Positions 3,276-44,632 of a stretch of DNA of 51,733 nt are shown piece by piece; within the stretch, counting starts at the first letter, position 1; every line of letters begins with the position of its first letter. Under the pieces are notes generated by a model that saw only the letters and a list, made by a program, of their open reading frames with translations, made no database searches and was not told where the DNA came from. The stretch lies in the NCBI GenBank assembly GCA_016196285.1, contig JACPXY010000044.1, positions 1 through 51,733 of the forward strand. Reading direction: 5' to 3'. The position numbers and the translations under genes were made by a program. The DNA comes from Candidatus Pacearchaeota archaeon (GTDB lineage Archaea > Nanobdellota > Nanobdellia > Pacearchaeales > GW2011-AR1).

Positions 3276-3284
3276 CTCTTATCT

Positions 3285-7171: not shown

Positions 7172-7185
7172 GAATTATGGATTGA

Positions 7186-7209
7186 TAAAAATCCTTACGG
7201 AAAAGCGTA
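7186..7209. repeat. 24-bp box TAAAAATCCTTACGGAAAAGCGTA (copy 2)
   Basis: It is identical to 4477..4500 and lies 9 nt upstream of ggTTTAAATA (7219..7226). Confidence 0.85.
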
Positions 7210-7227
7210 GGGAAAAGGTTTAAATAT

Positions 7228-7249
7228 TACTATCACTATAATGATAGTA
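7228..7249. promoter_or_regulatory. perfect 8-6-8 palindrome TACTATCA-ctataa-TGATAGTA between TATA box and start codon; putative autorepression operator
   Basis: It sits exactly between the TATA box (7219..7226) and the ATG at 7249, so it covers the predicted transcription start of the wHTH gene. Confidence 0.6.
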
Positions 7250-7887: not shown

Positions 7888-8555
7888 TGGAAGAATTAAT
7901 AGAGAAGGAGAATGCTATATTTGATATCTTGAAGAAATTTTTAGATCTGGGGCTTGATTTTATAGTAATAGGGGGCTATGCTGTTTCTTCATTTAAGCAT
8001 AGATTCTCTGTTGATGCAGATATTGTTGTTAAATCTGAAGATCTTAAAAAGTTTGAAGAAATAACCGAAAAAAACGGATTTGAAAAAACTTCTGAAAGAA
8101 AACTTGAGAATGTTTATTCATCAAGGTTTGTTAGATATGAAAAGGGATTGATTAGCATAGATTTCTTGGTGGATGCTGTTGCTGCGCGCTTAACGGGAGC
8201 TTCATTCAGCTATAATTTGATATTAAATAATTCAATCAAAAGAAAGATAATAGGGATTGAAAAAGAAATTAATGCTAAAATCCCGATAAAGGAGCTGCTG
8301 ATTGCAATGAAGATTCACTCTGGAAGATTGACTGATTTCAGAGATATTGCTGCTTTGGCTAAAGATTCTGACTTGGAAAGGATAAAGGATTTTTTATTTA
8401 TTGGAGATTTGAAAATGCTAAATGAGAGCTTGAAGAAGCTTGGAGAAACTATAAAAGATAAAAATTTTGCAAACTCTTTCAAAGGAGTTTTTATAGAGAA
8501 GAAGTTTGATATCGACCTGAAGAAAGTTGAAGAAATAAGCAGGTTAAGGAACTAA
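7887..8555 (+). CDS. nucleotidyltransferase-fold protein, AbiEii/DUF2204-like putative toxin
   Basis: 222 aa. It has a Pol-beta-type NTase motif, VIGGYAVSSFKHRFSVDADIVV (GG...DxD), followed by a helical C-terminal half. Confidence 0.55.
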   Translation: MEELIEKENAIFDILKKFLDLGLDFIVIGGYAVSSFKHRFSVDADIVVKSEDLKKFEEITEKNGFEKTSERKLENVYSSRFVRYEKGLISIDFLVDAVAARLTGASFSYNLILNNSIKRKIIGIEKEINAKIPIKELLIAMKIHSGRLTDFRDIAALAKDSDLERIKDFLFIGDLKMLNESLKKLGETIKDKNFANSFKGVFIEKKFDIDLKKVEEISRLRN

Positions 8556-8694
8556 TCCTTATAGCTGAAAGAAGAATATCATTATCAGTAATACTATGAG
8601 ATTTACACTTATCAACTTATGACTTTTATTTTGTTATCTATTTTATATCGATGATTTAGAAATCTTACACATTTTACAATTTATACAATATAAC

Positions 8695-9417
8695 CTAACC
8701 CTTAACTTCCTTCCACTTATTGCCGATTTTCTTTGTAATTCTTTCCACCTTGCCATCCTTGATATGGTATATTGTTTTTGCATACTTTTCAGCTTTTTCT
8801 GAATCGTGGGTGATAAGTATAATTGTTTTTCCTTTTTTGTTGAATTCTTCAAGAAACTGCATCACTTTTTCTCCTGTTTTTGTGTCTAAATTTCCTGTCG
8901 GCTCGTCTGCCAGAATAATCTCGGGATTGTTTGCTAAGCTTCTTGCTATTGCAACTCTCTGCTGCTGGCCTCCTGAAAGTTGATTAGGATAGTGGTCTGC
9001 CCTGTCTTCTAATTCTACAAGTTTCAACAATTCCAGGGCTTTTTCCTCTCTTTCATCTTTTTCTGCTCCTTGGAAGAGCATGGGAAGTGCAACATTTTCC
9101 AAGGCGGTAAGATTTGGAATTAGATTGAAGCTTTGGAAGATGAATCCTATCTTCTTTCCTCTTACTTGCGCTATTTCTGACTCTGTTAGATGGGAAATGT
9201 CAATCCCGTCAAGAAAAATGCTTCCTGCTGAAGGCAAGTCTAGGCTTCCTGTGAGATTCATTGCCGTGCTTTTTCCTGAACCTGAAGGGCCCATTATTGC
9301 CATGAAATCTCCTTTTTCTATTTTAATGTCAATTCCATCTAATGCTTTTACTATTGTCTCTCCCATTTCATAATATCTCTTGACATTCTTTATGGCGATT
9401 ATCTCCTTTCCTTGCAT
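8695..9417 (-). CDS. ABC transporter ATP-binding protein, MacB/LolD type
   Basis: It has Walker [10 protein letters not shown], a Q-loop, [13 protein letters not shown], Walker [12 protein letters not shown] and H-loop ITHD. The ORF-track start is 9456. I prefer the ATG at 9417 ([12 protein letters not shown]), which lies 25-26 nt from the TATA at 9439..9446. Confidence 0.9.
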
Positions 9418-9438
9418 GGGAAAGCGTAATGGATAAGG

Positions 9439-9446
9439 TTTAAAAA
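9439..9446. promoter_or_regulatory. single shared TATA box (TTTAAAAA) serving two divergent leaderless genes
   Basis: The box centre is about 25.5 nt from the ATG at 9417 (minus strand) and about 25.5 nt from the ATG at 9468 (plus strand). The whole intergenic region is 50 bp. Confidence 0.6.
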
Positions 9447-9467
9447 GGTTCTTCATGAAATAACTAT

Positions 9468-9665
9468 ATGATAATTCCAGTCAGGTGTTTCGGATGCGGG
9501 AAGCCGGTAGGCCACTTATGGGAAGAGTATAAGAAGCGGGTTGATGCTGGCGAGGACGCTGGCAAGATTCTTGATGAATTTGGTCTTGAGCGGTATTGTT
9601 GCAGGGCCGCATTGCTTGGGCATGCAGATATGCTTCCTGAAATTACCAAGTTCAAGAAGTCTTAA
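9468..9665 (+). CDS. rpoN: DNA-directed RNA polymerase subunit N (Rpo10/RpoN)
   Basis: 65 aa. MIIPVRCFGCGKPVGHLWEEY...LGLERYCCRAALLGH is the canonical zinc-bundle Rpb10/RpoN sequence. Confidence 0.93.
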   Translation: MIIPVRCFGCGKPVGHLWEEYKKRVDAGEDAGKILDEFGLERYCCRAALLGHADMLPEITKFKKS

Positions 9666-9696
9666 GTACCCGCTATCTTCTTATTTAATCCTATAG

Positions 9697-10257
9697 TTAT
9701 GTCTTAAGACCGAGAACCAATTCAAGCTCTCGCGCTTGCACTATCTTATTACTTTGCCAGAAATCTTCAACTGAATTGAGTTCCCACCATCCGTGCAGGT
9801 GTGGTGTGACTATATTATTCGGCTTGTGGAACATGACCTTCCCTGGACTTAAAAGTTCTCCCCACCTTGACTTAAGACCTCGTACTTGCACAGGTTCACT
9901 GCCCTTGAAATTCCACTGATGCCTGCGCACAACATTCCGAATTGCAATATCTTGGATATGCGTTGCTGGGCCGGCTTGAATTAGATAATCGCAGCCTGAC
10001 TTGATGTCATCATGAGAATAATCATAAACTTCTGAAGCAGTAGTAATAAGCTCTCTCCATATCTCAGGGCGCTTGAAAGAATCATTCCAATAGCTTCGCT
10101 CGTAGTGTTTGCATGCTCTTTTGAATTCAAGCTTATTCTTTCCCCATATCCAGACAATGCGCCATTGATTCTTGCCGAAGCGCGCATCATACCCTTCATA
10201 TCTTGCATCGCACTGCTTGCCGAACTGCCCTGGACTCTCTATATATTGCCAACCCAT
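9697..10257 (-). CDS. hypothetical protein, Trp-rich, no recognisable domain
   Basis: 186 aa with a long open frame and coding-like composition. I could not identify any motif (contains ...ATHIQDIAIRNVVRRHQW..., ...HLHGWWELNSVEDFW...). Confidence 0.55.
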   Translation of the reverse strand: MGWQYIESPGQFGKQCDARYEGYDARFGKNQWRIVWIWGKNKLEFKRACKHYERSYWNDSFKRPEIWRELITTASEVYDYSHDDIKSGCDYLIQAGPATHIQDIAIRNVVRRHQWNFKGSEPVQVRGLKSRWGELLSPGKVMFHKPNNIVTPHLHGWWELNSVEDFWQSNKIVQARELELVLGLKT

Positions 10258-10288
10258 GCTCTTCTTGACTGTACAGGGTTAAAAAAGA

Positions 10289-10543
10289 TTATTGTAGTCT
10301 AAATCTATTCTCATATCCACAATGCGCACAGATAACTGTCTTATGCTCTTTTGTGATGTGTATCTTTCCATGTAATGGTGATAAGCACTTCTTACAGAAG
10401 CTCTTGCGATACTGTGTGAGCTTAATTCTATGCCTCATGGCTATGCGCTTTGCCTTCTTAACCTGCTCGGAAGTAAATGATGATTGCGAGAAGAATTCAT
10501 TCAAATATATTTGTGCTTCTCTTTTTGTCAGCTCTTTCTTCAT
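10289..10543 (-). CDS. rnp4: RNase P protein component 4 (Rpp21/Rnp4)
   Basis: 84 aa. It has a basic helical N-terminus (AKRIAMRHRIKL) followed by a zinc ribbon, CKKCLSPL...VICAHCGYENRF. Confidence 0.85.
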   Translation of the reverse strand: MKKELTKREAQIYLNEFFSQSSFTSEQVKKAKRIAMRHRIKLTQYRKSFCKKCLSPLHGKIHITKEHKTVICAHCGYENRFRLQ

Positions 10544-10604
10544 TGATAATAAGATATATTTAAATTATATAAACTGCGCTATTGTTGTCTTCATAGAATA
10601 TGAC

Positions 10605-10718
10605 GAAGACAGCATCGGAGCTTCGCTTCTGGTGGGAAACTACCACACCCGACGTAGCCAGCTTGACTTCTGTGTTCGGAATGGGAACAGGTATTTCCTG
10701 GCTACTATGGCCGTCTTC
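10605..10718 (-). rRNA. 5S ribosomal RNA (stand-alone)
   Basis: The minus strand reads gaagacggccatagtagccaggaaatacctgttcccattccgaacacagaagtcaagctggctacgtcgggtgtggtagtttcccaccagaagcgaagctccgatgctgtcttc. It contains the universal CCCATTCCGAACAC-GAAGT-AAGC core. The ends pair as helix I (gaagacggc / gctgtcttc). A TATA (tttatata) lies about 24 nt upstream. The boundaries are good to a few nt. The 77-aa ORF at 10560..10793 is an artefact of this gene. Confidence 0.85.
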
Positions 10719-10761
10719 AAAAACTGTGAGAAAAAGAGGTATATAAAGCTTTCTTAAAAAC

Positions 10762-10797
10762 AACTGTGTTGCATGATTCTTAAAAAGCAACACAGTT
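10762..10797. other. perfect 11-bp inverted repeat (AACTGTGTTGC ... GCAACACAGTT) with a 14-nt spacer between divergent promoters
   Basis: Read directly from the sequence. It lies between the 5S promoter and the TATA of the kinase gene. The function is unknown. Confidence 0.5.
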
Positions 10798-10849
10798 CTG
10801 AAAACTGAGTGTATACAAATGTTTAAAATATAATCCCTAAAGTATACTT

Positions 10850-11824
10850 ATGGATAAAATAAGATATGCGCAAATAATCAGAGAATTCAGTGGTAAAAAT
10901 GTCGCTGTGGTAGGAGATGTATTATTGGACCATTACCTCTATGGAGATGCGAGCAGAGCCAATCCTGAGATGCCTGGCTCACCTCTCTTGAGAGTTACTG
11001 CGGAAGACTATCGGCTTGGAGGAGCAGGAAATGTCGCGGCAAATATCGCTGCACTAGGGGGGAAGGCCATCTTATATGGGGTCCGGGGAGCTGACCATGC
11101 GGGAGAGATACTCTCAGGTCTCTGCACCGAGCGAGGCCTTGCTTATTCTCTCATTCCTCTTAGAGATAAGACTCTTGTGAAACAACGGCTCATAGAGCGC
11201 GAGCATAATAACTATCTTGCACGAGTTGACTTTGGAGAGCAGACTGTAACTTCCTTGAGCAAAGATGATGAAGACGAGTTCTTTGGGATGATTGCAGATG
11301 AAGCATTTGACGCTCTTGTCCTATCTGATTATAATAAGGGGATGCTGCTTGGCGGTCTCGGTCAAAGAGTACTTGATCTTGCCGCTGCACGGGGAAAGAT
11401 AAGCATTGTGGACCCAAAGCCGATGAATGCTTATCTCTTCAGGCGAGCAACCGTCATTAGACCAAATCTGAGAGAGGCAATGCAGATTGTAGGAAGCACG
11501 TACCGCGATACAGAATCGATTGCTCGAAGGTTACAGGAGATAACTGAAAGTCGATATTCAGTGATCAGCTGCGGAGCTGAGGGGATTGTATTGTATGATG
11601 GTGGTTTCCATTCTATCCCGACGCATGCTGTTGAGGTCTCTGATGTAACTGGCGCAGGAGATACGGTTGCAGGAACCCTTGCTCTTGGGTTAGCAAGTGG
11701 AGCATACATCATTGATGCTGTAACAATCGCAAATTGCGCTGCAGGCATCGTTGTTGAAAAACGAGGAACTGCAACAACGAGTCAAGCAGAACTGAGTGAG
11801 AGAATCATTCGAGATATTCAATAA
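10850..11824 (+). CDS. PfkB-family sugar kinase resembling D-glycero-beta-D-manno-heptose-7-phosphate kinase (RfaE/HldE domain I)
   Basis: 324 aa. VAVVGDVLLDHYLYGDASRANPEMPGSPLLRV...RLGGAGNVAANIAALGG matches the HldE kinase-domain N-terminus. The C-terminal DVTGAGDTV is the PfkB signature. Confidence 0.75.
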   Translation: MDKIRYAQIIREFSGKNVAVVGDVLLDHYLYGDASRANPEMPGSPLLRVTAEDYRLGGAGNVAANIAALGGKAILYGVRGADHAGEILSGLCTERGLAYSLIPLRDKTLVKQRLIEREHNNYLARVDFGEQTVTSLSKDDEDEFFGMIADEAFDALVLSDYNKGMLLGGLGQRVLDLAAARGKISIVDPKPMNAYLFRRATVIRPNLREAMQIVGSTYRDTESIARRLQEITESRYSVISCGAEGIVLYDGGFHSIPTHAVEVSDVTGAGDTVAGTLALGLASGAYIIDAVTIANCAAGIVVEKRGTATTSQAELSERIIRDIQ

Positions 11825-11833
11825 CCTGTCTGT

Positions 11834-12070
11834 TCAACTCGTTGTAGTGCAATCTCTGCTGATTCCGCTATCTCGGGAATGGGATGTCTCGCCGAGCGAG
11901 AAGGCGAACTCATGCCTTACTATGGGGCTTGGATCGGTAAGTAAGCCTTTCCCTAGAATACTGCAGGATTCATCATCCGACTGATTCTTAAGGTGAAATG
12001 CAGTCTGAATTCTTGACTCTTGATTATGATTCTTTGTGTCAAATGCAATAGTCTTCCAATTCTGCTCCAT
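11834..12070 (-). CDS. HEAT/PBS-lyase-type repeat mini-protein (about 1.5 repeats), possibly a gene remnant
   Basis: 78 aa. LLTDPSPIVRHEFAFSLGETS is a HEAT-like repeat with a His-Glu pair, as in deoxyhypusine-hydroxylase-type repeats. It starts 9 nt downstream of the preceding gene. Confidence 0.35.
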   Translation of the reverse strand: MEQNWKTIAFDTKNHNQESRIQTAFHLKNQSDDESCSILGKGLLTDPSPIVRHEFAFSLGETSHSRDSGISRDCTTTS

Positions 12071-12079
12071 GTATCTGAT

Positions 12080-12826
12080 TTATACAGATTGTTTAAAATC
12101 TTTTTGCTGGATCATCTCAAGCAAAGCATCATAAAATGCAACGTTCAGTTCAAGATCAACGAACTGCCATCTGAAAAGCTCTTCTATGTCTGGACCACTC
12201 TGACAGGCATTATAACATAGATCCATCAACTCTCTGGAATGCTCAATGTCAGCTTCTATGTGAACCGGGAAATATTCTAGAGAGTCTTTTGGTGCAAATC
12301 TCTGCAAGGCCATGTAGAAGGGAGGGAACTCCCTCGGACAAATCAGCTCTTCACTCGCCATCATACCCAACGACATTAACGGATTGCATGATGAAGCCGC
12401 GAAGATGAGCATGTCGCAGATAAGCCGCGTAGAATCAGTCAGAGAGGCAGCAGCGTATTCATCTTCAGAGATATCTAGAGCGTGAAGGGCGCTCATGAAC
12501 AAAGCAAAATGCTCTTTCTGTGGATTGCCCTTCCCCATCTCATCGTCCAGATTTTCTGCCAGCGCATGATTCTCTCCTATACAGGGATTGGCAAGCATTC
12601 TTTGCAAGATGGTTACAAATGCCTGATCAATCCTTCCTGCCTGAATCGCCCATCTGCTCAAGACTTCCTTTGTCGGATTGTCTTTGATAATGCTAAAGAA
12701 CGGATGTTTCCATAGTCGATGATTGTTCATATTTCCTATAAATCGCTCTTGGAACTGTTCCTTACTCATCATTTTAACAGAATCCCTAGAGGATTCTTCT
12801 GCTTCTCGATGTTCTTTATATGTCAT
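12080..12826 (-). CDS. heme-oxygenase-like di-iron oxidase family protein (CADD/PqqC/TenA-like, 'iron-containing redox enzyme')
   Basis: 248 aa. HRLWKHPFF, ENLDDEMGKGNPQKEHFALF and FPVHIEADIEHSREL fit the helical E/H ligand pattern of this family. Confidence 0.65.
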   Translation of the reverse strand: MTYKEHREAEESSRDSVKMMSKEQFQERFIGNMNNHRLWKHPFFSIIKDNPTKEVLSRWAIQAGRIDQAFVTILQRMLANPCIGENHALAENLDDEMGKGNPQKEHFALFMSALHALDISEDEYAAASLTDSTRLICDMLIFAASSCNPLMSLGMMASEELICPREFPPFYMALQRFAPKDSLEYFPVHIEADIEHSRELMDLCYNACQSGPDIEELFRWQFVDLELNVAFYDALLEMIQQKDFKQSV

Positions 12827-12896
12827 GAAAACGGAGTGTTTAAATAGTATATTAACTTAATGTATAATAATATACAAAATATATTAAAAATGTAAA

Positions 12897-13604
12897 ATGG
12901 TAACTATTGCGAGAGTAGTCGAACGATATATCGAGGAGCATCCTTTTATCCACGATGCGCTCAGTCGAGGCATCATCAACAATGCGGCGCTTGCGAATGA
13001 GCTGCTCCCCCGCCTCAAGAGGGAACTGAGAGTCACACCCACATTCTCAGCAGTCAACATGGCTCTACGAAGATACGGGGAGAAGGCGAAAACGCGATTT
13101 GCCGAGAAGGTATTATTTGATGAGCGCTGCGCTATTACCCTTCAAACTGATTTGATTGAGATTGTTTTATACAAGGAAGAGCATGTTCAGGGCTACATCA
13201 GAGAGCTACATGCAAAAGTAAAGATTCGAGAGGGAGGCATTCTAACAATAACTCAGGGTTTTCATGAGATCATGGTGATTACCAACAGAAGGTATGAAAA
13301 GGAAGTACTTGCGCTTATTCCTTCCAAATACATTAAGAAGTTCGTAAAGAACTTGAGCAGCGTCACGATAACGCTTCCTGAAGAAGGAATACACGGCATT
13401 GGCCTGTTTTACACAGCAACGCGAAGCTTGAATTGGGAGAACATCAATATCATAGATATTGTCTCAACTCTAACAGAGATGACCTTCATAATAAAGAAAG
13501 AAGATTCTACAAAGGCGCTTGAGTCGCTTCAAGACCTTATTGAAAGCCAGCGCGCGTTTTTGCTAAGTAGAAATACAGGCAAAAATGCAAAAGAGAATAT
13601 TTAA
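12897..13604 (+). CDS. hypothetical protein (possible N-terminal helical/HTH part plus ACT-like C-terminal halves)
   Basis: 235 aa with a clean ORF. Domain assignment is weak (GILTITQGFHEIMVITN, IDIVSTLTEMTFIIKKED resemble ACT strands). Confidence 0.5.
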   Translation: MVTIARVVERYIEEHPFIHDALSRGIINNAALANELLPRLKRELRVTPTFSAVNMALRRYGEKAKTRFAEKVLFDERCAITLQTDLIEIVLYKEEHVQGYIRELHAKVKIREGGILTITQGFHEIMVITNRRYEKEVLALIPSKYIKKFVKNLSSVTITLPEEGIHGIGLFYTATRSLNWENINIIDIVSTLTEMTFIIKKEDSTKALESLQDLIESQRAFLLSRNTGKNAKENI

Positions 13605-13630
13605 AACTGTGCTTCGTTGATGAAGGACAT

Positions 13631-13714
13631 GCAGGAGTAGCGAAGTGGTCAAACGCGAGGGACTCAAGATCCCTTCCCTTAGTGGGTTCAGAGGTTCGAA
13701 TCCTCTCTCCTGCA
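13631..13714 (+). tRNA. tRNA-Leu (anticodon CAA), class II with long variable arm, no encoded CCA
   Basis: The manual fold gives acceptor GCAGGAG/CTCCTGC, D arm GCG-AAGTGGTCAAA-CGC, anticodon arm AGGGA-CTCAAGA-TCCCT, variable arm CCC-TTAGT-GGG and T arm AGAGG-TTCGAAT-CCTCT. A TATA (atttaaaa) lies about 24 nt upstream. Confidence 0.9.
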
Positions 13715-13780
13715 TCCCTGAAGGTATCTTCTTGATTTTATCTTCACACTGCTTAAAACGAGAAGGATTGTAGAAATGGA

Positions 13781-14647
13781 ATGAAGGTTGGGGTGGTTGG
13801 ATATGGTGTTGTTGGATCTGCAACTGGAACGGTGCTAGGTCAGATACATGATATCATTCCCTATGATCGGTACAAATCAGGTCTGCAAGATACGCTTGGA
13901 CGTCTGGCAAGCGAAGCAGAAGTAACTTTTATCTGCGTTCCGACACCTATGAGGGCAAATGGTTCAATGGACTACTCAGCCATACGAGCCTCGCTGGAAT
14001 CCTTGCTTCATGAAGTTATGAAATGTGGTAGAGATCCTGAGAGTCTTATTGCTGTTGTGCGTTCGACGGCAGTCTCGGGAACGACTGATTACTTTGCACA
14101 ACACTTCCCGTTTCGATTCGCTTTTAGTCCAGAGTTCTTGAGAGAGAAACATGCTGAAACAGATATGCGAAGCACAAGCAGAGTTATTATCGGGGCAAAT
14201 AGGAAGGATGTGCATACTGCATTGGTTGCCCTTTATCAAGCAGTCTTTCCTGAAGCGCATTATATCTGTGTTGATATAAAGACAGCTGAAATGATAAAAT
14301 ATGCTGCAAATATCGCCTTGGCAGGACAGATAGCCATTGCGAATGAGCTCTGTCGAATATGTGCTGCACTCGATATCGACTATGCACAAGTCAAGACAGC
14401 AATACAGCTTGATGAGCGGATAGGAAGAAACATGGATGTGCCTGGACATGACGGCAAACTCGGATTTGGAGGAAAATGTTTCCCGAAGGATTTGCGAGGA
14501 TTGATTGCGCTCGCCCGCGATAATCACCTAGAACCAAATCTGCTTAATGAAATCTGGAGAAGCAATCTTGATGTGAGAAAAGAACAGGATTGGCTTGAGA
14601 TCTGCGGAGCCACCACTGAAAACAATTTTGACAATCAGAGGGTTTAA
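13781..14647 (+). CDS. nucleotide-sugar dehydrogenase (UDP-glucose/GDP-mannose dehydrogenase family, short form)
   Basis: 288 aa. Contains MKVGVVGYGVVGSA (Rossmann), FICVPTP, PEFLREKHA and the catalytic-Cys context GFGGKCFPKD. Confidence 0.85.
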   Translation: MKVGVVGYGVVGSATGTVLGQIHDIIPYDRYKSGLQDTLGRLASEAEVTFICVPTPMRANGSMDYSAIRASLESLLHEVMKCGRDPESLIAVVRSTAVSGTTDYFAQHFPFRFAFSPEFLREKHAETDMRSTSRVIIGANRKDVHTALVALYQAVFPEAHYICVDIKTAEMIKYAANIALAGQIAIANELCRICAALDIDYAQVKTAIQLDERIGRNMDVPGHDGKLGFGGKCFPKDLRGLIALARDNHLEPNLLNEIWRSNLDVRKEQDWLEICGATTENNFDNQRV

Positions 14648-14673
14648 AATCGCTTGAAGCATTACGCCCACAT

Positions 14674-14748
14674 GCTCTCGTGGCGCAGCCCGGATAGCGC
14701 AGTGGGATCCTAACCCAAAGGTCGAAGGTTCAAATCCTTCCGAGAGCG
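14674..14748 (+). tRNA. tRNA-Arg (anticodon CCT)
   Basis: The manual fold gives acceptor GCTCTCG/CGAGAGC, D arm GCGC-AGCCCGGATA-GCGC, anticodon arm (G)TGGG-ATCCTAA-CCCA(A), T arm GAAGG-TTCAAAT-CCTTC and discriminator G. A TATA (tttaaaat) lies about 24 nt upstream. The A at position 32 and a G-A pair at the top of the anticodon stem are slightly unusual. Confidence 0.8.
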
Positions 14749-14784
14749 TTCTTTCAGTAAGATTTTTAAGTTAATAAGAGAGAG

Positions 14785-15020: not shown

Positions 15021-15048
15021 ATTAAATTAATCGCGCGATTAATTTAAT
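15021..15048. promoter_or_regulatory. 28-bp perfect palindrome ATTAAATTAATCGC|GCGATTAATTTAAT
   Basis: It lies between a TATA-like ctttaaaac (about 14999..15006) and the ATG at 15055, so it covers the predicted transcription start. This is a likely operator. Confidence 0.6.
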
Positions 15049-15054
15049 GGCAGA

Positions 15055-15843
15055 ATGATTGGTTTCCAAGATTTGCTGAGTAAATCAGTGCGAAAAAACC
15101 AATATACACGGGTTCGATTCCCGTATCGCGCATACATGCATCTGAAGAAGGCTTTTGCGAGAATAAATAGGGTTGTCCATCATGAATATGGGCCTACTCT
15201 AGCCGCGATTATTGTATTTGGCTCTGCGAATACCGGCGATTATAAGCCTGGAATCTCTGATATCGACTTAATGGTCTTTCTTAAAGAAGGGCGAGGAGTG
15301 GATTATGAAGAGGAAAAGAGAAGATTGTTCACACTCCTTAAAGATGAGCATGCCTCATTGACTTATCTCATGAGTCTTGCTGACCTCAGAGAGAAGATGA
15401 AAACAAGAGGCAGCTGGAGCTCATACATCACGTTGGTAGCGAAAGACGGCTCTACAACACTTTCTACTAGTCCTGCATTCGAACGTATACGCGCAAAACT
15501 GAAGAAGAGCGTACCTAGTCTCGAATCCATTATCACCTATCTTGATGAGAAAGATCAGACTGAACTGGATGGGTTCTCTAAATCAAAAGGATTCAATCGG
15601 ACAAAACTCTTATACTCCCATATGAGGCGAAAGCTGCAAATTATGTACTTTATTGAGATGCATAAGCTCAGATTTGACTACCACTTCTGCCTGAACCATG
15701 CCAATCTGCCTATTGATGAGAAGAGATACTTGAGAGGACTCTATCTGGCCTATAGCCGGAGACGGCTTCTCACACGCACAGAAGAACAGAGATATCTTGC
15801 ACTGGCGCGCGCTTACACTATGAGAATCAAAGGCAAAGAGTAG
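15055..15843 (+). CDS. nucleotidyltransferase-domain protein with helical C-terminal (HEPN/KNTase-like) half
   Basis: 262 aa. The minimal NTase motif is IIVFGSANTGDYKPGISDIDLMVFL (GS...DxD). The C-terminal half contains an R-x6-H candidate (RTKLLYSH). Confidence 0.65.
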   Translation: MIGFQDLLSKSVRKNQYTRVRFPYRAYMHLKKAFARINRVVHHEYGPTLAAIIVFGSANTGDYKPGISDIDLMVFLKEGRGVDYEEEKRRLFTLLKDEHASLTYLMSLADLREKMKTRGSWSSYITLVAKDGSTTLSTSPAFERIRAKLKKSVPSLESIITYLDEKDQTELDGFSKSKGFNRTKLLYSHMRRKLQIMYFIEMHKLRFDYHFCLNHANLPIDEKRYLRGLYLAYSRRRLLTRTEEQRYLALARAYTMRIKGKE

Positions 15844-38280: not shown

Positions 38281-39363
38281 TTAGGCAAGCAGTTCCCTTA
38301 ATGATTTGACAATGTACTCGCGCTCTTCTCTAGTGAGCTGAGGATGCACAGGTATGCTGATGACTTCCTTAGCAAGCTGCTCTGCAACAGGAAGCGAGCC
38401 TTCTGCACTGTATCCTTTATAGAGCGTCGTGAGATGAAGCGGCTGCGGGTAGTAGACGCGCGCTGCAATCCCTTTTTCCCCCAACTTCTGTAAAATTAGA
38501 TCTCGTTTTCCGTTGGTGATTCTCAAAGTGAATTGGTGGAATACGTGCTTCGTGCCTTTTTCACTGGGAAGAATCACATTCGGCAGACCTGCCAATTCCT
38601 TGAGAAAATAGTGCGCGTTCTCTATTCTTTTTTTAGTAAGAACCTCTATTCTCTTCAACTGCTCAAGTGCGATTGCTGCCTGCATCTCAGTTATCCTGAA
38701 GTTTAATCCGTAGCCTACATAATCATACTTTGTGCGCTGCCCTATATTGATGAAATCTCTTATCTTTCCTGCATATTCTGGATTGTTTGTCGTGATAATG
38801 CCTCCTTCGCCGCTCATGATGTTCTTTGACTCCTGAAGACTGAATGCAGCAAGGTCTCCTAGTGTGCCTGCTTTTCTCCCCTGGTACTCAGCTCCCACTG
38901 CCTGACATGCATCTTCTATCAAAAAGAGCTTGTGCTTGTCTGCAATGCGCTTGATTGCATCATAGTCATACTGCAATCCGTAAAGGTCAACAGGAAGAAT
39001 TGCTCTTGTCCTCTTAGTTATCTTTTCTTCTATCTTACTCGGATCTATGTTGAAGTCTTCTCCGATATCAACGAAAACAGGTTTAGCTTTAAAATACATG
39101 ATAGCATTTGCAGTGGCAATGAAAGTGAAGGGAGTGGTTATCACCTCATCCCCTTCCTTGAGACCGCATGCATAAAGTGCGGCTATAAGCGCTGACGTGC
39201 CGCTTGAAACAAGGATTGCATGCTGCACCTTGCAGAATCTTGCAAATGCCTCCTCAAACTCCTTCACTACCTTTCCTTGAAAGAGCCTGCCTGACTCGAG
39301 AACTTTTAGAACAGCTCTCTTTTCCTCTTCTCCGATAAATGGCCTGGCAATTGGTATCTCCAT
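38281..39363 (-). CDS. DegT/DnrJ/EryC1/StrS-family sugar aminotransferase
   Basis: It starts MEIPIARPFIGEEEKRAV (ATG at 39363, with its own TATA at 39386..39392; the ORF-track start is 39426). The catalytic-Lys region is AAFSLQESKNIMSGEGG. Confidence 0.88.
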   Translation of the reverse strand: MEIPIARPFIGEEEKRAVLKVLESGRLFQGKVVKEFEEAFARFCKVQHAILVSSGTSALIAALYACGLKEGDEVITTPFTFIATANAIMYFKAKPVFVDIGEDFNIDPSKIEEKITKRTRAILPVDLYGLQYDYDAIKRIADKHKLFLIEDACQAVGAEYQGRKAGTLGDLAAFSLQESKNIMSGEGGIITTNNPEYAGKIRDFINIGQRTKYDYVGYGLNFRITEMQAAIALEQLKRIEVLTKKRIENAHYFLKELAGLPNVILPSEKGTKHVFHQFTLRITNGKRDLILQKLGEKGIAARVYYPQPLHLTTLYKGYSAEGSLPVAEQLAKEVISIPVHPQLTREEREYIVKSLRELLA

Positions 39364-39459
39364 GATTAAGAACGTACGTGTTGTCTTATAAACTTTTCCG
39401 AGGAGAATCGAGTAGAATAAGTTCATAAGGTTTATAAATGAACTTCGATTGCAACGAGT

Positions 39460-40164
39460 ATGGCTAATGGCATTGCTGGTGTTCCGGCTACTTTTGAAGA
39501 ATTCTTAACCTCTGCCGGTTCTGTGCAGGTTGACTTGCAGTCATTAGTTATTGCACTGCTGCTTGCAACACTTCTTTCCTTCCTTCTGGCGAGACTATAT
39601 GTGAAGTATGGCACCTCTTTGTCAAATAGAAAACGCTTCGCTGACAATTTTGTACTAATAACTGTTGCAACTACTTTAGTGATTACAATCGTTAAATCCT
39701 CGCTTGCTTTATCTCTTGGATTAGTTGGTGCACTATCCATTGTGCGATTCAGGGCAGCCATTAAAGAGCCTGAGGAGCTTACTTTCTTGTTCCTCACCAT
39801 TGCGATGGGTCTTGGGCTGGGAGCAAATCAATTCTCAATAACTATTGTCTCGTTTCTCATTATGAGCGTTATTATCTGGGGCAGGCACTTCTATCACAAG
39901 AAAGATGAAAACCAGAATCTCTATTTATCAGTTGTCGGACAAGCATCATCCCATGTAACACTTGACAACATCAAGAAGATTCTTGAGAAACATTGTACTG
40001 CTGTCCAGCTCAGACGCTTTGACCATACTGCTGATGACGGCATTGATGCAACTTTCCTGATTGATGTGAGTGCATATGCCTCTCTTGAACGAGCATTAAA
40101 TGACTTGAAGAAGCTCTCAAAGAACCTCACTATCACCTACATGGATAAAATCGGCGTTCACTAA
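39460..40164 (+). CDS. DUF4956-family integral membrane protein (partner of VTC-domain proteins)
   Basis: 234 aa with about 4-5 TM segments. It has the hallmark stretch LGLVGALSIVRFRAAIKEPEELTFLFLTIAMGLGLGA and a soluble ~80-aa C-terminal tail. The TATA tttataaa is centred 25-26 nt upstream. Confidence 0.72.
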   Translation: MANGIAGVPATFEEFLTSAGSVQVDLQSLVIALLLATLLSFLLARLYVKYGTSLSNRKRFADNFVLITVATTLVITIVKSSLALSLGLVGALSIVRFRAAIKEPEELTFLFLTIAMGLGLGANQFSITIVSFLIMSVIIWGRHFYHKKDENQNLYLSVVGQASSHVTLDNIKKILEKHCTAVQLRRFDHTADDGIDATFLIDVSAYASLERALNDLKKLSKNLTITYMDKIGVH

Positions 40165-40166
40165 CC

Positions 40167-42899
40167 ATGGAAATCAAAGGCCGGGAGACTAGTGCACACC
40201 TCTACTCTAACCCGTTAGAAAAAATCAGAGCAGCATTGCAGACAAACATAGCACGTAAAGCTGGATTCGCATTTTGCATTCTTCTCTGCATCCTTACTTT
40301 TATCATAGGAGTATTTGGAGGTCTGCTTGCTACCGGTTTTTTTGGAACACTTGATGAACCATCTGAACGCACTATCGCGATTATCCATGCATTTGGCATC
40401 GGTGGCTTGAGAGAACTGCAGACTAAAGTCCTTGAGGTAAAAAATGAGCATATCAAGATACCATTCAATTACCTTCTTGGCCACCTCGCGCAGCCAAAAC
40501 GCATGACTATTGATGTCTCATTCGAAAACTATCAGAAACTCGTCTACGCGCGCGAGAAAGCAGTGAATCTTGGACTTCTAATCGTCTCTGATGATGAAGA
40601 GGTTCCTGCACGCGTGACACTTGACGGTAAGCAAGTACGTGCAGACATTCGCTTGAAAGGAGAGAATACTGATCATGTGCTGGGAGATAAATGGTCGCTA
40701 CGCATCAAAGTGAAGGATAGCGAGACATTGCAAAGTATGAGCGTCTTCTCGATACAAGACCCTGCACGCAGAAAAAATCTGAATGAATGGATATATCTTC
40801 AGGCATTGCATGACGAGGATGTGCTTGCAGTCAGGTATGATTTTGTTGATGTAACCATCAATGGCAAGCATAAAGGAATATACGCTATTGAAGAGCATTT
40901 CCAGAAACAGCTGCTTGAATCGAATGGCAGGCTTGATGGGCCGATTATTCGATTCGATGCTGAACAGCGCAGAGATGAAGTATTGCTTCGTGAACAGACA
41001 GAGTACTCTCAAATACTCTCTGAGAACATTGACTGGTATCCTACTACGACTATCCAGCTCTATAAACCGACAACGCTTCAAGATTCTGTACGGGCACAGG
41101 AGTTTGATGAAGCAAAGAATCTGCTTGAAGCATGGCGTCTCGGCAAGATGAAAACCAGCGAGGTATTCGATACTGATGTACTGGCAAAGTACTTTGCAGT
41201 CAGCACAGTCTTTGGCGGGCATCATGCAACGCTCTGGTCTAATACTCCTTTCTACTATAATCCAGTTACCTCAAAACTTGAGCCAATCGGCTTTGATGCA
41301 GAAATTGGAAATCAAGCATATCAGGGAGTTGAACCTTTCTCTCCTGTGTGCCTCAAAGCTTCTGGAGCTGCCTGCAGTGTTGCAACGACAGATTACTATG
41401 GATTGCTGTTCAGTGATGCTGTATTCTATCAAGCATATATTGAAGAGCTTAAGCGAGTGTCACAGAGAGAGTACATGGACTCCTTCTTCTCAGAACATGA
41501 ACAGGAAATCTCGCACTATACCAGATTGTTACACCGCGAGAATCCGAGCTATCATGTATTTCTTGATTCTTTCTATACAAATCAGTTGCAGATTCAATCT
41601 ATCCTGCACCCAGTTAATCAGGTTAATGCATACTATGGGGGAGTGAATGCACAGCGCAGACTCACCTTGCAGATAGGCAATACTGGCCAAGTGCCGATAG
41701 AAATTGTGGACCTGAAGTATAAGGATACTATCATCCAACCTGTAAATGGACCTCTGCTCTTACAGCGCAGACCTGCAAATTCATCGACAAATTATCAAGA
41801 AGCTGTATTTGTACTCCCATCCACACTTACTACGTGGAATGAGACTTACGTGCCTGAAATGCGCGTGCGCTACCGATTAGTTGGAGATAGTGAACTCTAC
41901 GAGGATTATGTGCTGCCTTGGCAGTACCTTGATGAATCATTTCCAGAGGATAATCTTCTGCGAGAAACTCCTAATATTGAGAGATTTTCATTCATTGAAA
42001 AAGATGAGGGCTCGAAGATTATACGGATTAAGCCAGGAACCTGGATAGTGAATGAGAGCTTGATTATCCCTGCAGGATACCGTGTGCATGTAGGTGAAGG
42101 AACTTCTTTAGACCTTACTTCTAAATCCTTAATTCTCTCCTACTCGCCACTGCAACTTGAAGGCAGTCAGGAAAGACCAGTCAGTGTCTATTCATCTGAT
42201 GGAACTGGGCAGGGGCTTGTTGTGCTGCAGGCGCGGGATTCTTCAACAGTGAGTTGGACACGATTTGAAAACCTAACTAGTGCTGATAAAAGTAACTGGC
42301 AGCTGACTGGTGCAGTAACCTTCTATGAATCTCCTGTTGCATTCGACAATGTATACTTCGGGAGCTTTCATGCAGAAGATATTCTTAATATTAAACAGTC
42401 TTCTTTCTCCCTAACTAACTCTGTTTTCAATCAGAGCACGTCTGACTGTCTGGATATTGATTTCGGGACAGGAAGAATAGAATCAGTTAAAGCATATGGG
42501 TGCGGAAATGATGGGCTTGACTTCTCAGGCAGCACTGCGAACATAAAAGATTTCTACTCACGCGGTCAGGGAGATAAGGGCATCAGTTCAGGAGAGAACA
42601 GCACAATCTCTGCTGAGGATATAGTTGTAGAGGAAGGGTATATCGGGCTTGCGAGCAAAGACTTGTCCTTCTTTACTGTCACGAACGCGACTTTGCGCGG
42701 CAATACATACGGTCTTGCATTGTACGAGAAGAAGACTGAGTTTGGAGCAGGCGTCCTGCATGGCGCAGGCATTATCTTAGAAAACAACGAGCAGGATTAC
42801 ATTAAGGACAGTGCATCTGAACTTGTACTTGAAGGTGAGAGAATGGAGGAGAGCGAGAGCAGAGATGTTTATGACTTGCTCTATCCTGAGGAATTATGA
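40167..42899 (+). CDS. membrane-anchored CotH-family (atypical kinase fold) protein with C-terminal parallel beta-helix repeats
   Basis: 910 aa. It has an N-terminal TM anchor (FAFCILLCILTFIIGVFGGLLATGFFG) and a CotH-like core (IRLKGENTDHVLGDKWSLRIKVK; SIQDPARRKNLNEWIYLQALHDEDVLAVRYDFVDVTINGKHKGIYAIEEHF). The C-terminal ~250 aa has repeated short G/D/N-rich strands (SDCLDIDFGTG..., GNDGLDFSGS..., GDKGISSGENS...). Confidence 0.78.
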   Translation: MEIKGRETSAHLYSNPLEKIRAALQTNIARKAGFAFCILLCILTFIIGVFGGLLATGFFGTLDEPSERTIAIIHAFGIGGLRELQTKVLEVKNEHIKIPFNYLLGHLAQPKRMTIDVSFENYQKLVYAREKAVNLGLLIVSDDEEVPARVTLDGKQVRADIRLKGENTDHVLGDKWSLRIKVKDSETLQSMSVFSIQDPARRKNLNEWIYLQALHDEDVLAVRYDFVDVTINGKHKGIYAIEEHFQKQLLESNGRLDGPIIRFDAEQRRDEVLLREQTEYSQILSENIDWYPTTTIQLYKPTTLQDSVRAQEFDEAKNLLEAWRLGKMKTSEVFDTDVLAKYFAVSTVFGGHHATLWSNTPFYYNPVTSKLEPIGFDAEIGNQAYQGVEPFSPVCLKASGAACSVATTDYYGLLFSDAVFYQAYIEELKRVSQREYMDSFFSEHEQEISHYTRLLHRENPSYHVFLDSFYTNQLQIQSILHPVNQVNAYYGGVNAQRRLTLQIGNTGQVPIEIVDLKYKDTIIQPVNGPLLLQRRPANSSTNYQEAVFVLPSTLTTWNETYVPEMRVRYRLVGDSELYEDYVLPWQYLDESFPEDNLLRETPNIERFSFIEKDEGSKIIRIKPGTWIVNESLIIPAGYRVHVGEGTSLDLTSKSLILSYSPLQLEGSQERPVSVYSSDGTGQGLVVLQARDSSTVSWTRFENLTSADKSNWQLTGAVTFYESPVAFDNVYFGSFHAEDILNIKQSSFSLTNSVFNQSTSDCLDIDFGTGRIESVKAYGCGNDGLDFSGSTANIKDFYSRGQGDKGISSGENSTISAEDIVVEEGYIGLASKDLSFFTVTNATLRGNTYGLALYEKKTEFGAGVLHGAGIILENNEQDYIKDSASELVLEGERMEESESRDVYDLLYPEEL

Positions 42900-43585
42900 G
42901 CGAAAAGAAAGCGCGAGAGCTGCGCTACGAGAGAAAATTCTTGGTGCATGAACTAAGCACGCATCAAGTCAGGCATCTGCTGGTGATGCTTCCAGGCATA
43001 TTCAGGAAACTTCATCTGCCAAGGCGCATCAATAATATCTACCTTGATTCTCTGGATTATCGGAATTATCTTGATAGCATTGAAGGAGAGAAAGAACGCA
43101 TGAAAGTACGCATACGCTGGTATGGAAAAACTATCGGACAGATACATCCTGTATTGGAGATTAAGATGAAGCATGGTGAGATTGGAAAGAAGCTCTCATT
43201 TCCTTTACATCCTTTTGCTGTCAGCAAACGCCTCTCACGCGAATTCCTTATGCAGGAGGTATTCATGAGATCAAATTTACCTGATGCAATCCTCGCTGAA
43301 TTAAAGCAGTTAACCCCTGTGCTGCTTAATTCTTATCTCAGAGAATATTATCAATCTGCAAATAAGGCCTGCAGAGTAACTTTAGACAGCGAGCAGGTAT
43401 TTATCAAGCTCCATCCTGCACATAATACCTTTACGCAACGCATCAAAGATCCCCGAAGTACTGTGATTGAGATTAAGTACTCGCAGCAGGATGCTGAGCT
43501 GGTGCACCAGATGTTCAAGCACTTGCCCTTCAGACTTGTACAGAATTCGAAGTATACGTATGGACTTGGGCAGTTCATAAGCTAA
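42896..43585 (+). CDS. VTC-domain protein (triphosphate-tunnel / polyphosphate-polymerase-like)
   Basis: 229 aa with no TM segment. Alternating charged beta-strand motifs YERKFLV, NIYLDS, KVRIRWYG, VLEIKMKHG, RVTLDS, VIEIKY and SKY are typical of CYTH/VTC tunnel enzymes. The ATGA overlaps the CotH stop. Confidence 0.78.
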   Translation: MSEKKARELRYERKFLVHELSTHQVRHLLVMLPGIFRKLHLPRRINNIYLDSLDYRNYLDSIEGEKERMKVRIRWYGKTIGQIHPVLEIKMKHGEIGKKLSFPLHPFAVSKRLSREFLMQEVFMRSNLPDAILAELKQLTPVLLNSYLREYYQSANKACRVTLDSEQVFIKLHPAHNTFTQRIKDPRSTVIEIKYSQQDAELVHQMFKHLPFRLVQNSKYTYGLGQFIS

Positions 43586-43591
43586 GAGACT

Positions 43592-44632
43592 ATGAATCAG
43601 ATTTTACTTATGGGGATGAGTGCGCCGCAAGAAGGCGGCAGTGAGAGACATGTATATGAGCTGGCAAGCCGAATCAAGGAAAGCACGGTCTTTACCCAAA
43701 GAGGCAGCATTTGCCAGCGCACTGTTCAAGTTCCTGTACCTACAAGAAATATTCTTCTCAGGAATTTGTGTTTTCTCTTCTGGGCTGTGCTCTATGCTCT
43801 TTTCCTGCTCATCACTCTTAGGAAGAAGTATACAACTATCCATATCCATGAGAATCTGCTCTATGTTCTTGCTCCTCTTCTTAGAATGCGCTATACTGTT
43901 GTGATTACGATACATGGCATGACTGGATTTCTCTTCCATGATTCAAAACTGCTCTGGCTGTTTTTTAAGCAGGGATTGCGTGCCGCTGATGCGCTGATTG
44001 CAGTGAATCCTGTTGATGAGCGCGTATTGCACCATGAGTTTCCCGGAAAGAAAATTAAATATTTCCCGAATGGAGTTGATTTAGATGCCTATAAAGGAAG
44101 AGCGCATGTAGAGAAGAAAATAGTATTTATCGGCAGAATCCATGAACAGAAAGGAATTGTGTATTTGCTTGAAGCATTCACCTCACTTGAGGCGCAGATT
44201 CCTGGCTTCAAGCTGGAGATTATAGGAAAACTGAATGATTATGCCATCGAGCTGCAGAGAAAGTATCCTTCTCAACGCATTCTCTGGAGAGGATTTATTG
44301 CTAATCGAGATGCAATTGCGAGAACGTTAGAGTCTGCTTACTGCATAGTCTTGCCGAGTTTATGGGAGGGTCTGCCCCTGACTTTGTTCGAGTCACTTGC
44401 TTCAGGCAGGCCGATTATTGTATCAAAGATTGACGCATTTAGTTCAGTGGTTAAAAACGAAGTCATTTTCTTCAAGAGCAAAAATAGCTCGGATCTAGGA
44501 AAGAAGCTGTTAGAGATTGTACGAGATAAGAAACGTGCTGCTCGAATAGGTGCTGCAGGAAAGAAAACTGCCGGAAGATATGACTGGAACAGAATTGCGC
44601 AAGAATATTCTGCATTTATGCAGAGTTTATAA
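43592..44632 (+). CDS. glycosyltransferase family 4 (GT-B, GT1-type)
   Basis: 346 aa. The EX7E region is PSLWEGLPLTLFESLASGRPII. Confidence 0.85.
   Translation: MNQILLMGMSAPQEGGSERHVYELASRIKESTVFTQRGSICQRTVQVPVPTRNILLRNLCFLFWAVLYALFLLITLRKKYTTIHIHENLLYVLAPLLRMRYTVVITIHGMTGFLFHDSKLLWLFFKQGLRAADALIAVNPVDERVLHHEFPGKKIKYFPNGVDLDAYKGRAHVEKKIVFIGRIHEQKGIVYLLEAFTSLEAQIPGFKLEIIGKLNDYAIELQRKYPSQRILWRGFIANRDAIARTLESAYCIVLPSLWEGLPLTLFESLASGRPIIVSKIDAFSSVVKNEVIFFKSKNSSDLGKKLLEIVRDKKRAARIGAAGKKTAGRYDWNRIAQEYSAFMQSL

Follow-up and report, generated by a model that had tools for sequence, protein, structure and literature searches.

Gene sets that bring together a VTC-domain protein, a small membrane protein and a CotH protein are on record from several bacteria. 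NELoc-2 of Clostridium perfringens was tabulated in 2010 as containing VTC-domain proteins, membrane proteins of about 225 amino acids, CotH, a glycosyltransferase and a deacetylase (PMC2879425). A set of accessory genes comprising cotH, a polyphosphate (polyP) polymerase, DUF4956 and DUF4832 is, according to Whitfield and colleagues, conserved and contiguous with the pel operons of Streptococci, Clostridia and Bifidobacteria (10.1101/768473). In Streptococcus intermedius, deletion of CotH or of DUF4956 reduced aggregation and shifted Pel levels in opposite directions; the published version of that study reported no such synteny outside pel loci (PMC12345266). VTC-type synthesis of polyP in yeast is obligatorily coupled to translocation across a membrane (PMC9911596). 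The subject here is a trio of genes at positions 39460-43585 of a 51,733-nucleotide contig from a Candidatus Pacearchaeota archaeon (JACPXY010000044.1; "the window" refers to this whole stretch of DNA). We regard it as the DPANN-archaeal representative of an envelope module of three genes that is widespread and passes from lineage to lineage.

All three genes lie on the plus strand. ORF1 (open reading frame 1; 39460-40164, 234 amino acids) encodes a DUF4956 membrane protein, ORF2 (40167-42899, 910 amino acids) a membrane-anchored CotH-fold protein with a beta-sandwich and a beta-helix, and ORF3 (42896-43585, 229 amino acids) a stand-alone, soluble VTC-type triphosphate-tunnel protein. An earlier note on this DNA had described a tightly packed run behind a single TATA-like box, and direct reading of the sequence agrees: the ORF1 stop codon TAA (40162-40164) is followed by "cc" and then by the ORF2 ATG at 40167, leaving a 2-nt gap, while ORF2 and ORF3 overlap in an ATGA at 42896-42899. 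The putative promoter element, the TATA-box-like TTTATAAA at 39431-39438 (plus strand), 22 nt 5' of the ORF1 ATG, was the sole match to TTTA[AT]A within 39300-43700 in a sequence scan. The family assignments of the earlier note also stand, as each protein matches its Pfam family above that family's own gathering score: ORF1 to DUF4956 (PF16316; 3e-17, 63.3 bits versus a cut-off of 30.6), ORF2 to CotH (PF08757; 2.8e-8, 34.1 bits versus 23.8, residues 161-434) and ORF3 to VTC (PF09359; 1.8e-29, 103.4 bits versus 23.0, profile positions 2-231 of 235). NCBIfam matched none of them. The genes have all been annotated before: NCBI lists proteins 100% identical to all three, from "Candidatus Pacearchaeota archaeon", under the names DUF4956 domain-containing protein, CotH kinase family protein and polyphosphate polymerase domain-containing protein. 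The module itself has been described in bacteria, and the view that no prokaryotic trio had been characterised and that its occurrence was unusual was overstated in light of NELoc-2 (PMC2879425) and, from 2019 to 2025, the pel sets (10.1101/768473) and the gene-by-gene deletions in S. intermedius (PMC12345266).

The three genes are strongly linked. With each GTDB species represented by a single genome, relatives turned up in at least 578 genomes, and the best 80 loci were searched with hidden Markov models (HMMs) built from alignments of the three families. All three families occur together in 54 of these loci, and most of the other 26 are cut by a contig end, as is each locus without DUF4956. 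Among the 42 loci with a full flank (at least 4 kb on both sides), DUF4956 lies beside VTC in 42 of 42, and CotH is present in 35; every untruncated related locus encodes an ORF3-type VTC protein together with an ORF1-type DUF4956 protein. The detected module genes are on one strand in 77 of the 80 loci, although their order varies. With M for DUF4956, V for VTC, C for CotH, Cb for a CotH-beta-helix fusion and b for a separate beta-helix protein, at least six arrangements were seen: M-Cb-V (26 loci), Cb-M-V (10), M-V-Cb (5), Cb/b-V-M-C (4), M-V-C (3) and others. A linkage that has outlasted so much reshuffling in both archaea and bacteria speaks strongly for functional coupling. Chance would not nearly account for such adjacency; VTC and DUF4956 form the core pair, and CotH is a frequent third member. 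The trio is common outside pel loci, where the streptococcal study had not found the synteny.

The order found in the window, DUF4956 followed by a CotH(+Beta_helix) protein of about 900 amino acids and then VTC, is shared by the closest VTC homologs and was seen in Nanoarchaeota metagenome-assembled and single-amplified genomes, in one KSB1 and one Planctomycetota bacterium and in two ENA contigs that share synteny with the window. Hosts of the trio include Pace-, Woese- and Nanoarchaeota, Methanosarcina, Bacteroidota, Planctomycetota, KSB1, Omnitrophota and bacteria of the candidate phyla radiation (CPR), among others. A rough neighbour-joining tree of DUF4956 plus VTC, which carries no support values, places the DPANN copies in one clade beside CPR bacteria and the Methanosarcinales in a separate clade among bacteria, and the two archaeal clades suggest at least two transfers between the domains. 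Searches with the ORF1 and ORF3 proteins against plasmids gave no match. Several loci show how the module can be duplicated or recast. The Nanoarchaeota single-amplified genome AM-311-K23 carries two complete modules in opposite orientations (locus L003, 4631-8663 and 10466-14540; the same region as L014), ordered M-Cb-V and Cb-V-M in their own directions of transcription, with a single Wzx-type flippase gene between them. In three Anaerolineae loci (L036 8566-9942, L048 8449-9888 and L030 879-2459), DUF4956 itself carries an N-terminal ConA-like 3-keto-disaccharide-hydrolase (DUF1080-type) domain recognised by Pfam; VTC is present there, with no CotH within 10 kb. The ORF2 architecture is split over two genes in Flavobacteriaceae (L029, L039, L044 and L077, about 7350-13240), where a beta-helix protein of about 850 amino acids is encoded upstream of VTC-DUF4956 and a CotH-like protein of about 610 amino acids downstream; neither of these two proteins of L029 is recognised by Pfam at E<=0.01.

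ORF3 consists of a VTC domain alone, lacking both the SPX domain and a transmembrane domain, and a hydropathy scan found no hydrophobic segment in it. A VTC profile search returned 8,076 clusters at 50% identity (E<=1e-3), and the best 150 of these contained no fusion proteins, all being stand-alone and of 208-277 amino acids. Single-sequence searches of the three ORFs against the PDB returned nothing significant, so that profiles were required; the profile of 40 ORF3 homologs matched the triphosphate tunnel metalloenzyme (TTM) structures of yeast Vtc2/Vtc4 (3g3o, 3.4e-7; 3g3q, 1.1e-4). Along the printed profile alignment, with Vtc4 residues numbered as the 3g3q chain position plus 185, nine positions of ORF3 match Vtc4 and are invariant in the 40 homologs: K14 (Vtc4 K200), R72 (R264), R74 (R266), E88 (E279), K90 (K281), K99 (K294), Y147 (Y359), R149 (R361) and R160 (R373). 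The tunnel Lys, Arg and Glu residues on which the earlier note had counted are thus retained. Further along, E192, K194, S218 and K219 are invariant or nearly so and fall inside the Pfam VTC match. By way of the full-length Pfam match, they probably correspond to Vtc4 E426/K428 (E192/K194) and S457/K458 (S218/K219). Mutations at R264, R266 and E426 serve to inactivate yeast VTC (PMC9911596). Taken together, these comparisons show ORF3 to be a predicted stand-alone, cytoplasmic VTC-type tunnel enzyme that keeps the tunnel residues of Vtc4 and probably also its C-terminal catalytic ones.

ORF2 is built to work on the other side of the membrane. Its sole hydrophobic segment is an N-terminal signal-anchor at residues 27-63 (40245-40355, plus strand), and an anchor of this type, defined as a 19-residue stretch with Kyte-Doolittle hydropathy of at least 1.6, is kept in 40 of 44 homologs. 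The flanks of the anchor carry net charges of +3 on the N-terminal and -2 on the C-terminal side, which by the positive-inside rule would place the N-terminus inside and the ectodomain outside, the outward orientation that the earlier note had proposed. In the AlphaFold2 model (pLDDT 88), a helical stalk (residues 67-107) precedes a CotH-fold domain (residues ~110-480; 40494-41606), a poorly conserved beta-sandwich spacer (residues 486-583; 41622-41915) and a right-handed beta-helix (residues ~610-890; 41994-42836), all on the plus strand. The best Foldseek match of the model was B. cereus CotH (5jda; E 8e-12, TM-score 0.70 on target), and the ORF2 family profile matched 5jd9 at 3.3e-8. The beta-helix assignment draws on Pfam Beta_helix/Pect-lyase matches in ORF2 homologs, on conservation and on Foldseek matches to GH87 glucanase, alginate lyase, phage tailspike depolymerases and K1 capsule lyase. 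Conserved acidic and Lys residues (D760, D785, D803, E810, K831, D832, K856 and E858) lie on its successive rungs. Columns conserved at 90% or more make up 19% of the CotH domain and 16% of the beta-helix, as against 0-5% of the spacers (5% in the beta-sandwich); the CotH domain and beta-helix are therefore the parts that sequence conservation indicates to be strongly constrained, and the stalk and sandwich are not. In these models, ORF2 is predicted to expose both its CotH-fold domain and its beta-helix, which is glycanase-like, on the cell exterior.

The CotH active site was mapped by aligning B. cereus CotH to the ORF2 family HMM, with conservation taken over the 44 homologs. Sites kept in ORF2 include N359 (B. 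cereus N229), N365 (N235), E372 (E242), D377 (D247) and E243 (E124). The metal-binding D377, which equals B. subtilis D251, and the catalytic-loop Asn N359 are each present in 42 of 44 homologs. The catalytic Asp is D224 in B. cereus and D228 in B. subtilis, where the change D228Q abolishes activity (PMC7821199). ORF2 has A354 at this site; the preceding residue, H353, is conserved in 43 of 44. In eight further module-linked CotH proteins, the short Flavobacteriaceae forms among them, the catalytic Asp is absent from all eight and the His kept in seven. Basic residues specific to the ORF2 family (R162, R179, R202, H170 and H244) are conserved as well. Judged from these alignments, the metal and nucleotide scaffold is intact and the catalytic centre non-canonical, and because the catalytic Asp is missing, the domain probably lacks canonical kinase chemistry. 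The earlier designation "CotH kinase" is accordingly sound as to family and fold and uncertain as to kinase activity.

The most conserved protein of the trio is ORF1, which shares 50-66% identity with many homologs; the DUF4956 profile is matched by all 40 aligned homologs, in which GALSIVRFRAAIKEPEELTFLF forms the invariant core motif of the family. Its AlphaFold2 model (pLDDT 85) has five membrane helices followed by a C-terminal beta-alpha-beta-beta-alpha-beta domain. The membrane domain (residues 26-145; 39535-39894, plus strand; helices 26-50, 57-78, 81-99, 104-121 and 125-145) holds the invariant core SSLALSLGLVGALSIVRFRAAIKEPEEL, with invariant columns between S80 and L107. The C-terminal domain (residues 152-229; 39913-40146, plus strand) has an ACT/PII-like ferredoxin fold according to AlphaFold2 and Foldseek and is predicted to be cytoplasmic. 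Residues 1-25 contain no Lys or Arg, RKR occurs at 57-59 and HKK follows helix 5, from which an N-out/C-in topology can be inferred; the conserved loop RFRAAIKEPEE and the C-terminal domain would then be cytoplasmic, and the extracellular N-terminal fusion to DUF4956 in Anaerolineae agrees with this orientation. Foldseek matches to the ORF1 model involve the C-terminal domain alone and are weak (all E>1e-3): SbtB (PII-like), ACT domains and the MgtC C-terminal domain 2lqj, the last with a TM-score of 0.60 on target and E 6e-3 amid many ferredoxin-like folds. The MgtC profile (PF02308) scores 9 bits on ORF1 against a cut-off of 31.4, yet a sub-threshold match recurs in 31 of 40 homologs (best E 0.03). 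On the strength of these C-terminal and sub-threshold matches, ORF1 is best described as a distant MgtC-like protein with no detectable kinship to the VTC transmembrane channel; the ORF1 family profile found no match in the PDB. The suggestion in the earlier note that ORF1 is an analogue of the VTC translocase therefore receives no support from homology, the protein being MgtC-like with an ACT/PII-like domain. The profile matches, the tunnel residues, the topology and the co-conservation on which that note had staked its wider proposal all came out in its favour.

These data firmly support a functional unit that spans the membrane, composed of a cytoplasmic VTC-type enzyme, a constant MgtC-like partner and, usually, an outward-facing CotH-fold protein with a beta-helix that would bind or cleave glycan. 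What the unit does can be proposed with less assurance. In the account that we prefer, tentatively and in the knowledge that it may well be wrong, ORF3 would make polyP at the membrane, ORF1 would couple this to the outside and ORF2 would act on the surface glycan. More specifically, ORF3 would work at the inner membrane face, polymerising polyP from ATP. ORF1 would hold, gate or conduct this product or its signal, either across the membrane or at it. The ORF2 beta-helix would bind surface glycan, and its CotH-fold domain might modify or organise that glycan using a phosphoryl donor. Exported polyP would be a plausible extracellular donor.

Several observations weigh against this account. The membrane part of ORF1 matched no solved structure in Foldseek, no similarity of ORF1 or DUF4956 to the yeast VTC transmembrane channel is detectable, and DUF202 is not among the top 25 of the 69 families weakly matched by ORF1 homologs. 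MgtC, the nearest relative of ORF1, is known as a regulator and not as a transporter (PMC12345266). The residue of ORF2 to which B. cereus D224 aligns is A354 (posterior ~0.8), in a column where 41 of 44 homologs have Gly, Ala, Ser or Thr. Seven full-flank loci, five from Anaerolineae/Chloroflexia and two from Verrucomicrobiota, lack CotH. A profile of the C-terminal part of VTC alone gave no significant PDB alignment, leaving Vtc4 E426, K428, S457 and K458 unmatched, and the literature searched held no biochemical study or measured activity of any prokaryotic VTC protein or trio member. Deletion of the VTC gene in S. intermedius had no aggregation or Pel phenotype (PMC12345266), and the deletion phenotypes as a whole are not those expected if VTC, DUF4956 and CotH acted one after another in a simple linear pathway.

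Those phenotypes suit somewhat better the main rival, a scheme in which the ORF3 product stays inside the cell, ORF1 is an MgtC-like sensor with an ACT domain, and ORF2 is an independent, co-regulated surface protein; ORF1 might then tether or regulate ORF3, or the system might serve phosphate/ATP homeostasis during glycan synthesis. In the preprint of their study, the S. intermedius authors favour this view, proposing that polyP may stay cytoplasmic, and the three deletion phenotypes differ from one another (PMC12345266, preprint). ORF1 does appear to have the two-domain architecture of MgtC, with the recurrent sub-threshold match noted above, and its C-terminal domain resembles ligand-sensing PII/ACT domains as well as the MgtC C-terminal domain; pairs of VTC and DUF4956 without CotH also exist. 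We nevertheless regard cytoplasmic retention as possible but on the unlikely side, for it leaves unexplained an extracytoplasmic third partner that persists in 35 of 42 loci through changes of gene order, as well as the lectin-like extracellular domain fused to DUF4956 in the CotH-less Anaerolineae, and conservation in ORF1 is higher in the invariant Gly/Ser-rich membrane helices than in the sensor domain. A bolder scheme makes ORF1 a dedicated polyP channel and lets the ORF2 CotH domain use the exported polymer to (poly)phosphorylate an S-layer protein or glycan. It shares all of the support of our preferred account. The replaced Asp, next to a near-invariant His (43 of 44), leaves room for non-canonical phosphotransfer, the family-specific basic residues of ORF2 are numerous, and an ATP-dependent kinase outside the cell would have no donor. 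Nothing points, however, to a channel in ORF1, to CotH folds that bind polyP or to an intermediate with phosphorylated His, and deletion of VTC in S. intermedius did not phenocopy deletion of CotH; we therefore consider the scheme unlikely. The same low standing applies to its fullest form, in which the module would be a prokaryotic counterpart of the eukaryotic VTC synthase-translocase assembled from unrelated membrane parts, with an ORF1 oligomer conducting polyP to a polyP-using, His-for-Asp ORF2 whose beta-helix holds the glycan.

Two further alternatives question either the enzyme or the association itself. The TTM superfamily is catalytically diverse, and ORF3 might hydrolyse or convert a triphosphate substrate, in the manner of CYTH triphosphatases or cyclases, as an energiser or signal for ORF1 and ORF2, rather than polymerise polyP. 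The want of measured activity and the C-terminal catalytic residues that do not align significantly to Vtc4 leave space for such a role. ORF3 matches Pfam VTC specifically and over its full length, though, the solved structures that it matches are yeast Vtc2 and Vtc4, and the nine invariant Vtc4 tunnel residues include the R264/R266 pair needed for polymerase activity, which makes a non-polymerase doubtful. Adjacency by chance, or membership of an anti-phage defence island with no shared envelope function, deserves next to no credence. The glycosyltransferase gene of family GT4 downstream of the trio does match the Pfam family "GT4-conflict" weakly; near-obligate co-occurrence across two domains of life in several gene orders is hard to reconcile with either idea. 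PADLOC returned no match for any of the four proteins, and the defence reading was rejected; that result, the co-occurrence and the multiple gene orders effectively refute fortuitous adjacency.

Prokaryotic polyP synthesis is normally credited to PPK1 and PPK2, and the module could reveal a second prokaryotic route. With it, the existence of a VTC-type polyP system in prokaryotes can be put directly to the test, the VTC-DUF4956 pair with its frequent CotH/beta-helix partner being a compact and experimentally tractable unit within a large family (about 8,000 clusters at 50% identity). Three features are new: the module is not specific to pel, the long CotH-beta-helix fusion form occurs in DPANN archaea and in many bacterial phyla, and this CotH clade lacks the canonical catalytic Asp. 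Study of the module could also uncover the function of the large DUF4956 and MgtC-like families and how a kinase-fold protein works outside the cell. Were polyP indeed the donor, phosphorylation outside the cell could proceed independently of ATP in archaea and many bacteria, which would be important. Direct tests look feasible, because the trio is present in the complete genome of Methanosarcina sp. Mfa9 (L011, NZ_CP195119) and has already been deleted in Streptococcus.

Within the window, the trio is embedded in a glycan-biosynthesis island that occupies its flanks from about 19 kb to 51 kb. The island encodes a Wzx-type flippase, GT2, GT4 and GT9 transferases, two DegT aminotransferases, several epimerases/dehydratases, a FemAB-like protein, a polysaccharide deacetylase of family CE4 and a carbamoyltransferase, which suggests an amino-sugar-rich glycan moved by the flippase. 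Pfam scans of the 20 flanking genes at 24-51 kb recovered GT4, the CE4 deacetylase and the Wzx-type flippase and found no PelD, PelE or PelG family. A GT4 gene (43592-44632, plus strand) begins 6 nt 3' of ORF3, so that the co-directional run counts four genes. Only the first three are kept together in other genomes, and in the closest syntenic relatives (L004 and L005) a minus-strand gene comes after the trio; the GT4 gene is possibly a co-transcribed passenger outside the conserved module.

Neighbours elsewhere are varied. A phmmer search with the flanking proteins of the window proved too insensitive for comparing neighbourhoods, missing the Methanosarcina deacetylase, and neighbours were profiled by a Pfam scan of 135 immediate neighbour genes from about 49 loci. 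The commonest were GT4 (8), Wzx flippase (6), GT2 (6) and methyltransferases (6). With such diverse neighbours, the module looks like a self-contained cassette that is often, but not always, found in glycan loci. Inorganic pyrophosphatase (PF00719) and APH-type phosphotransferase each account for three of the 135 genes (trio loci L008-L087), and may be relevant to priming by pyrophosphate, or to the removal of pyrophosphate, during polyP synthesis. Near the Methanosarcina trio (L011, 601-6318 and 12278-17124) are genes for a CE4 deacetylase, a FemAB-like protein, DUF354, WbqC, GNAT, a PIG-L de-N-acetylase and GT2, and past the trio region lie a 1000-aa beta-helix/Ig/dockerin protein and then a cohesin-domain protein; FemAB-like and CE4 genes are found near the trio both there and in the window. 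In a Planctomycetota locus (L007, 6848-10424; same contig as L017), a phosphonate-type cassette follows directly downstream of the trio, comprising a fusion of CTP-transferase and phosphoenolpyruvate mutase, a thiamine pyrophosphate-dependent decarboxylase and an Fe-alcohol dehydrogenase. This is another link of the module to phosphorus-containing surface decorations.

The island has a GC content of 41-45%, the same as most of the window, which is at 33-37% in 1-10000 and 41-45% in 10001-51733. The low-GC first 10 kb encodes an ABC transporter, a MacB/FtsX permease, an AAA_14 ATPase and a semialdehyde dehydrogenase. One ABC-transporter ATPase ORF in it (6460-7101, minus strand) matches positions 37-136 of ABC_tran only and may be truncated at its N-terminus; a complete ABC ATPase is encoded nearby at 8695-9456 (minus strand). 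A lone 5S rRNA gene (10604-10718, minus strand) sits at the GC boundary. Between tRNA-Leu (13630-13717) and tRNA-Arg (14673-14749) is an ORF resembling UDP-glucose/GDP-mannose dehydrogenases (13781-14647, plus strand, 288 amino acids) that looks truncated, its N-domain match starting at profile position 72 and its C-terminal domain missing, and may be what is left of a gene. Rfam detected a third tRNA (15033-15132, plus strand, 100 nt) that ARAGORN missed; it probably contains an intron, as is typical of archaea, and so fits an archaeal origin of the contig. The start of an ORF with a nucleotidyltransferase domain (15055-15843) overlaps this tRNA, and its true start is therefore probably further downstream.

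Each protein of the trio, and the trio as a whole, can be set beside a described system. The model of ORF1, with five membrane helices followed by a weakly ACT-like domain predicted to be cytoplasmic, recalls the layout of the MgtC/SapB/YhiD family (PF02308); the profile matches to this family are weak but consistent, and some ORF1 homologs are labelled "YhiD" by the Joint Genome Institute. The invariant core SIVRFRAAIKEPEE is, in contrast, specific to DUF4956 and not a feature of the MgtC family, and MgtC, which is known as a regulator of the F1Fo ATPase and PhoR, has no VTC partner. ORF2 shares the fold of the atypical Ser/Thr kinase CotH of Bacillus (5jd9/5jda; PMC7821199) and retains N359, D377, E372, E243 and K175. 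Its clade differs in having Gly, Ala or Ser in place of the catalytic Asp and a His one position before, and ORF2 is extracytoplasmic, membrane-anchored, equipped with two extra domains and removed from any spore context. ORF3 resembles the yeast Vtc4/Vtc3/Vtc1 complex (PMC9911596) in its tunnel domain, which has the same basic, Tyr and Glu residues, and in its obligatory association with a membrane protein. The yeast complex has an SPX sensor, which ORF3 lacks, and its tunnel domain is fused to transmembrane helices, as that of ORF3 is not; its membrane partner is a three-helix DUF202 domain as opposed to the unrelated five-helix, MgtC-like, ACT-bearing ORF1, a hypothetical translocator.

Among whole loci, NELoc-2 (PMC2879425, PMC11677781), with its VTC proteins, "tubulin/FtsZ-like" membrane protein, CotH, glycosyltransferase and deacetylase, is like the window in pairing VTC proteins with membrane proteins of about 225 amino acids near a CotH gene, a glycosyltransferase and a polysaccharide deacetylase; by their size and position, these membrane proteins are probably DUF4956. 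It is unlike the window in that the VTC/membrane pair is duplicated around a resolvase, CotH has 497 amino acids and the locus is one of bacterial pathogenicity. The pel accessory genes (S. intermedius SIR_1594/1593/1592/1591; 10.1101/768473, PMC12345266) bring the same three Pfam families together, contiguous and beside an exopolysaccharide locus, with CotH predicted to be secreted, VTC to be cytoplasmic, and DUF4956 to combine a transmembrane part with an ACT domain. The order in those papers is cotH, polyP polymerase, DUF4956, whereas the window has DUF4956-CotH-VTC; the window host is a DPANN archaeon with no pelD/E/G families in the flanks, unlike the Gram-positive pel loci. Streptococcal CotH, of about 570 amino acids with an FN3 domain, is reported to keep the catalytic Asp that the ORF2 clade lacks, while the 910-aa ORF2 is anchored, with a beta-sandwich and beta-helix fused to it. 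Both systems have a glycan-cleaving or glycan-binding companion, which is the separate DUF4832 hydrolase in the pel set and the fused beta-helix of ORF2 in the window.

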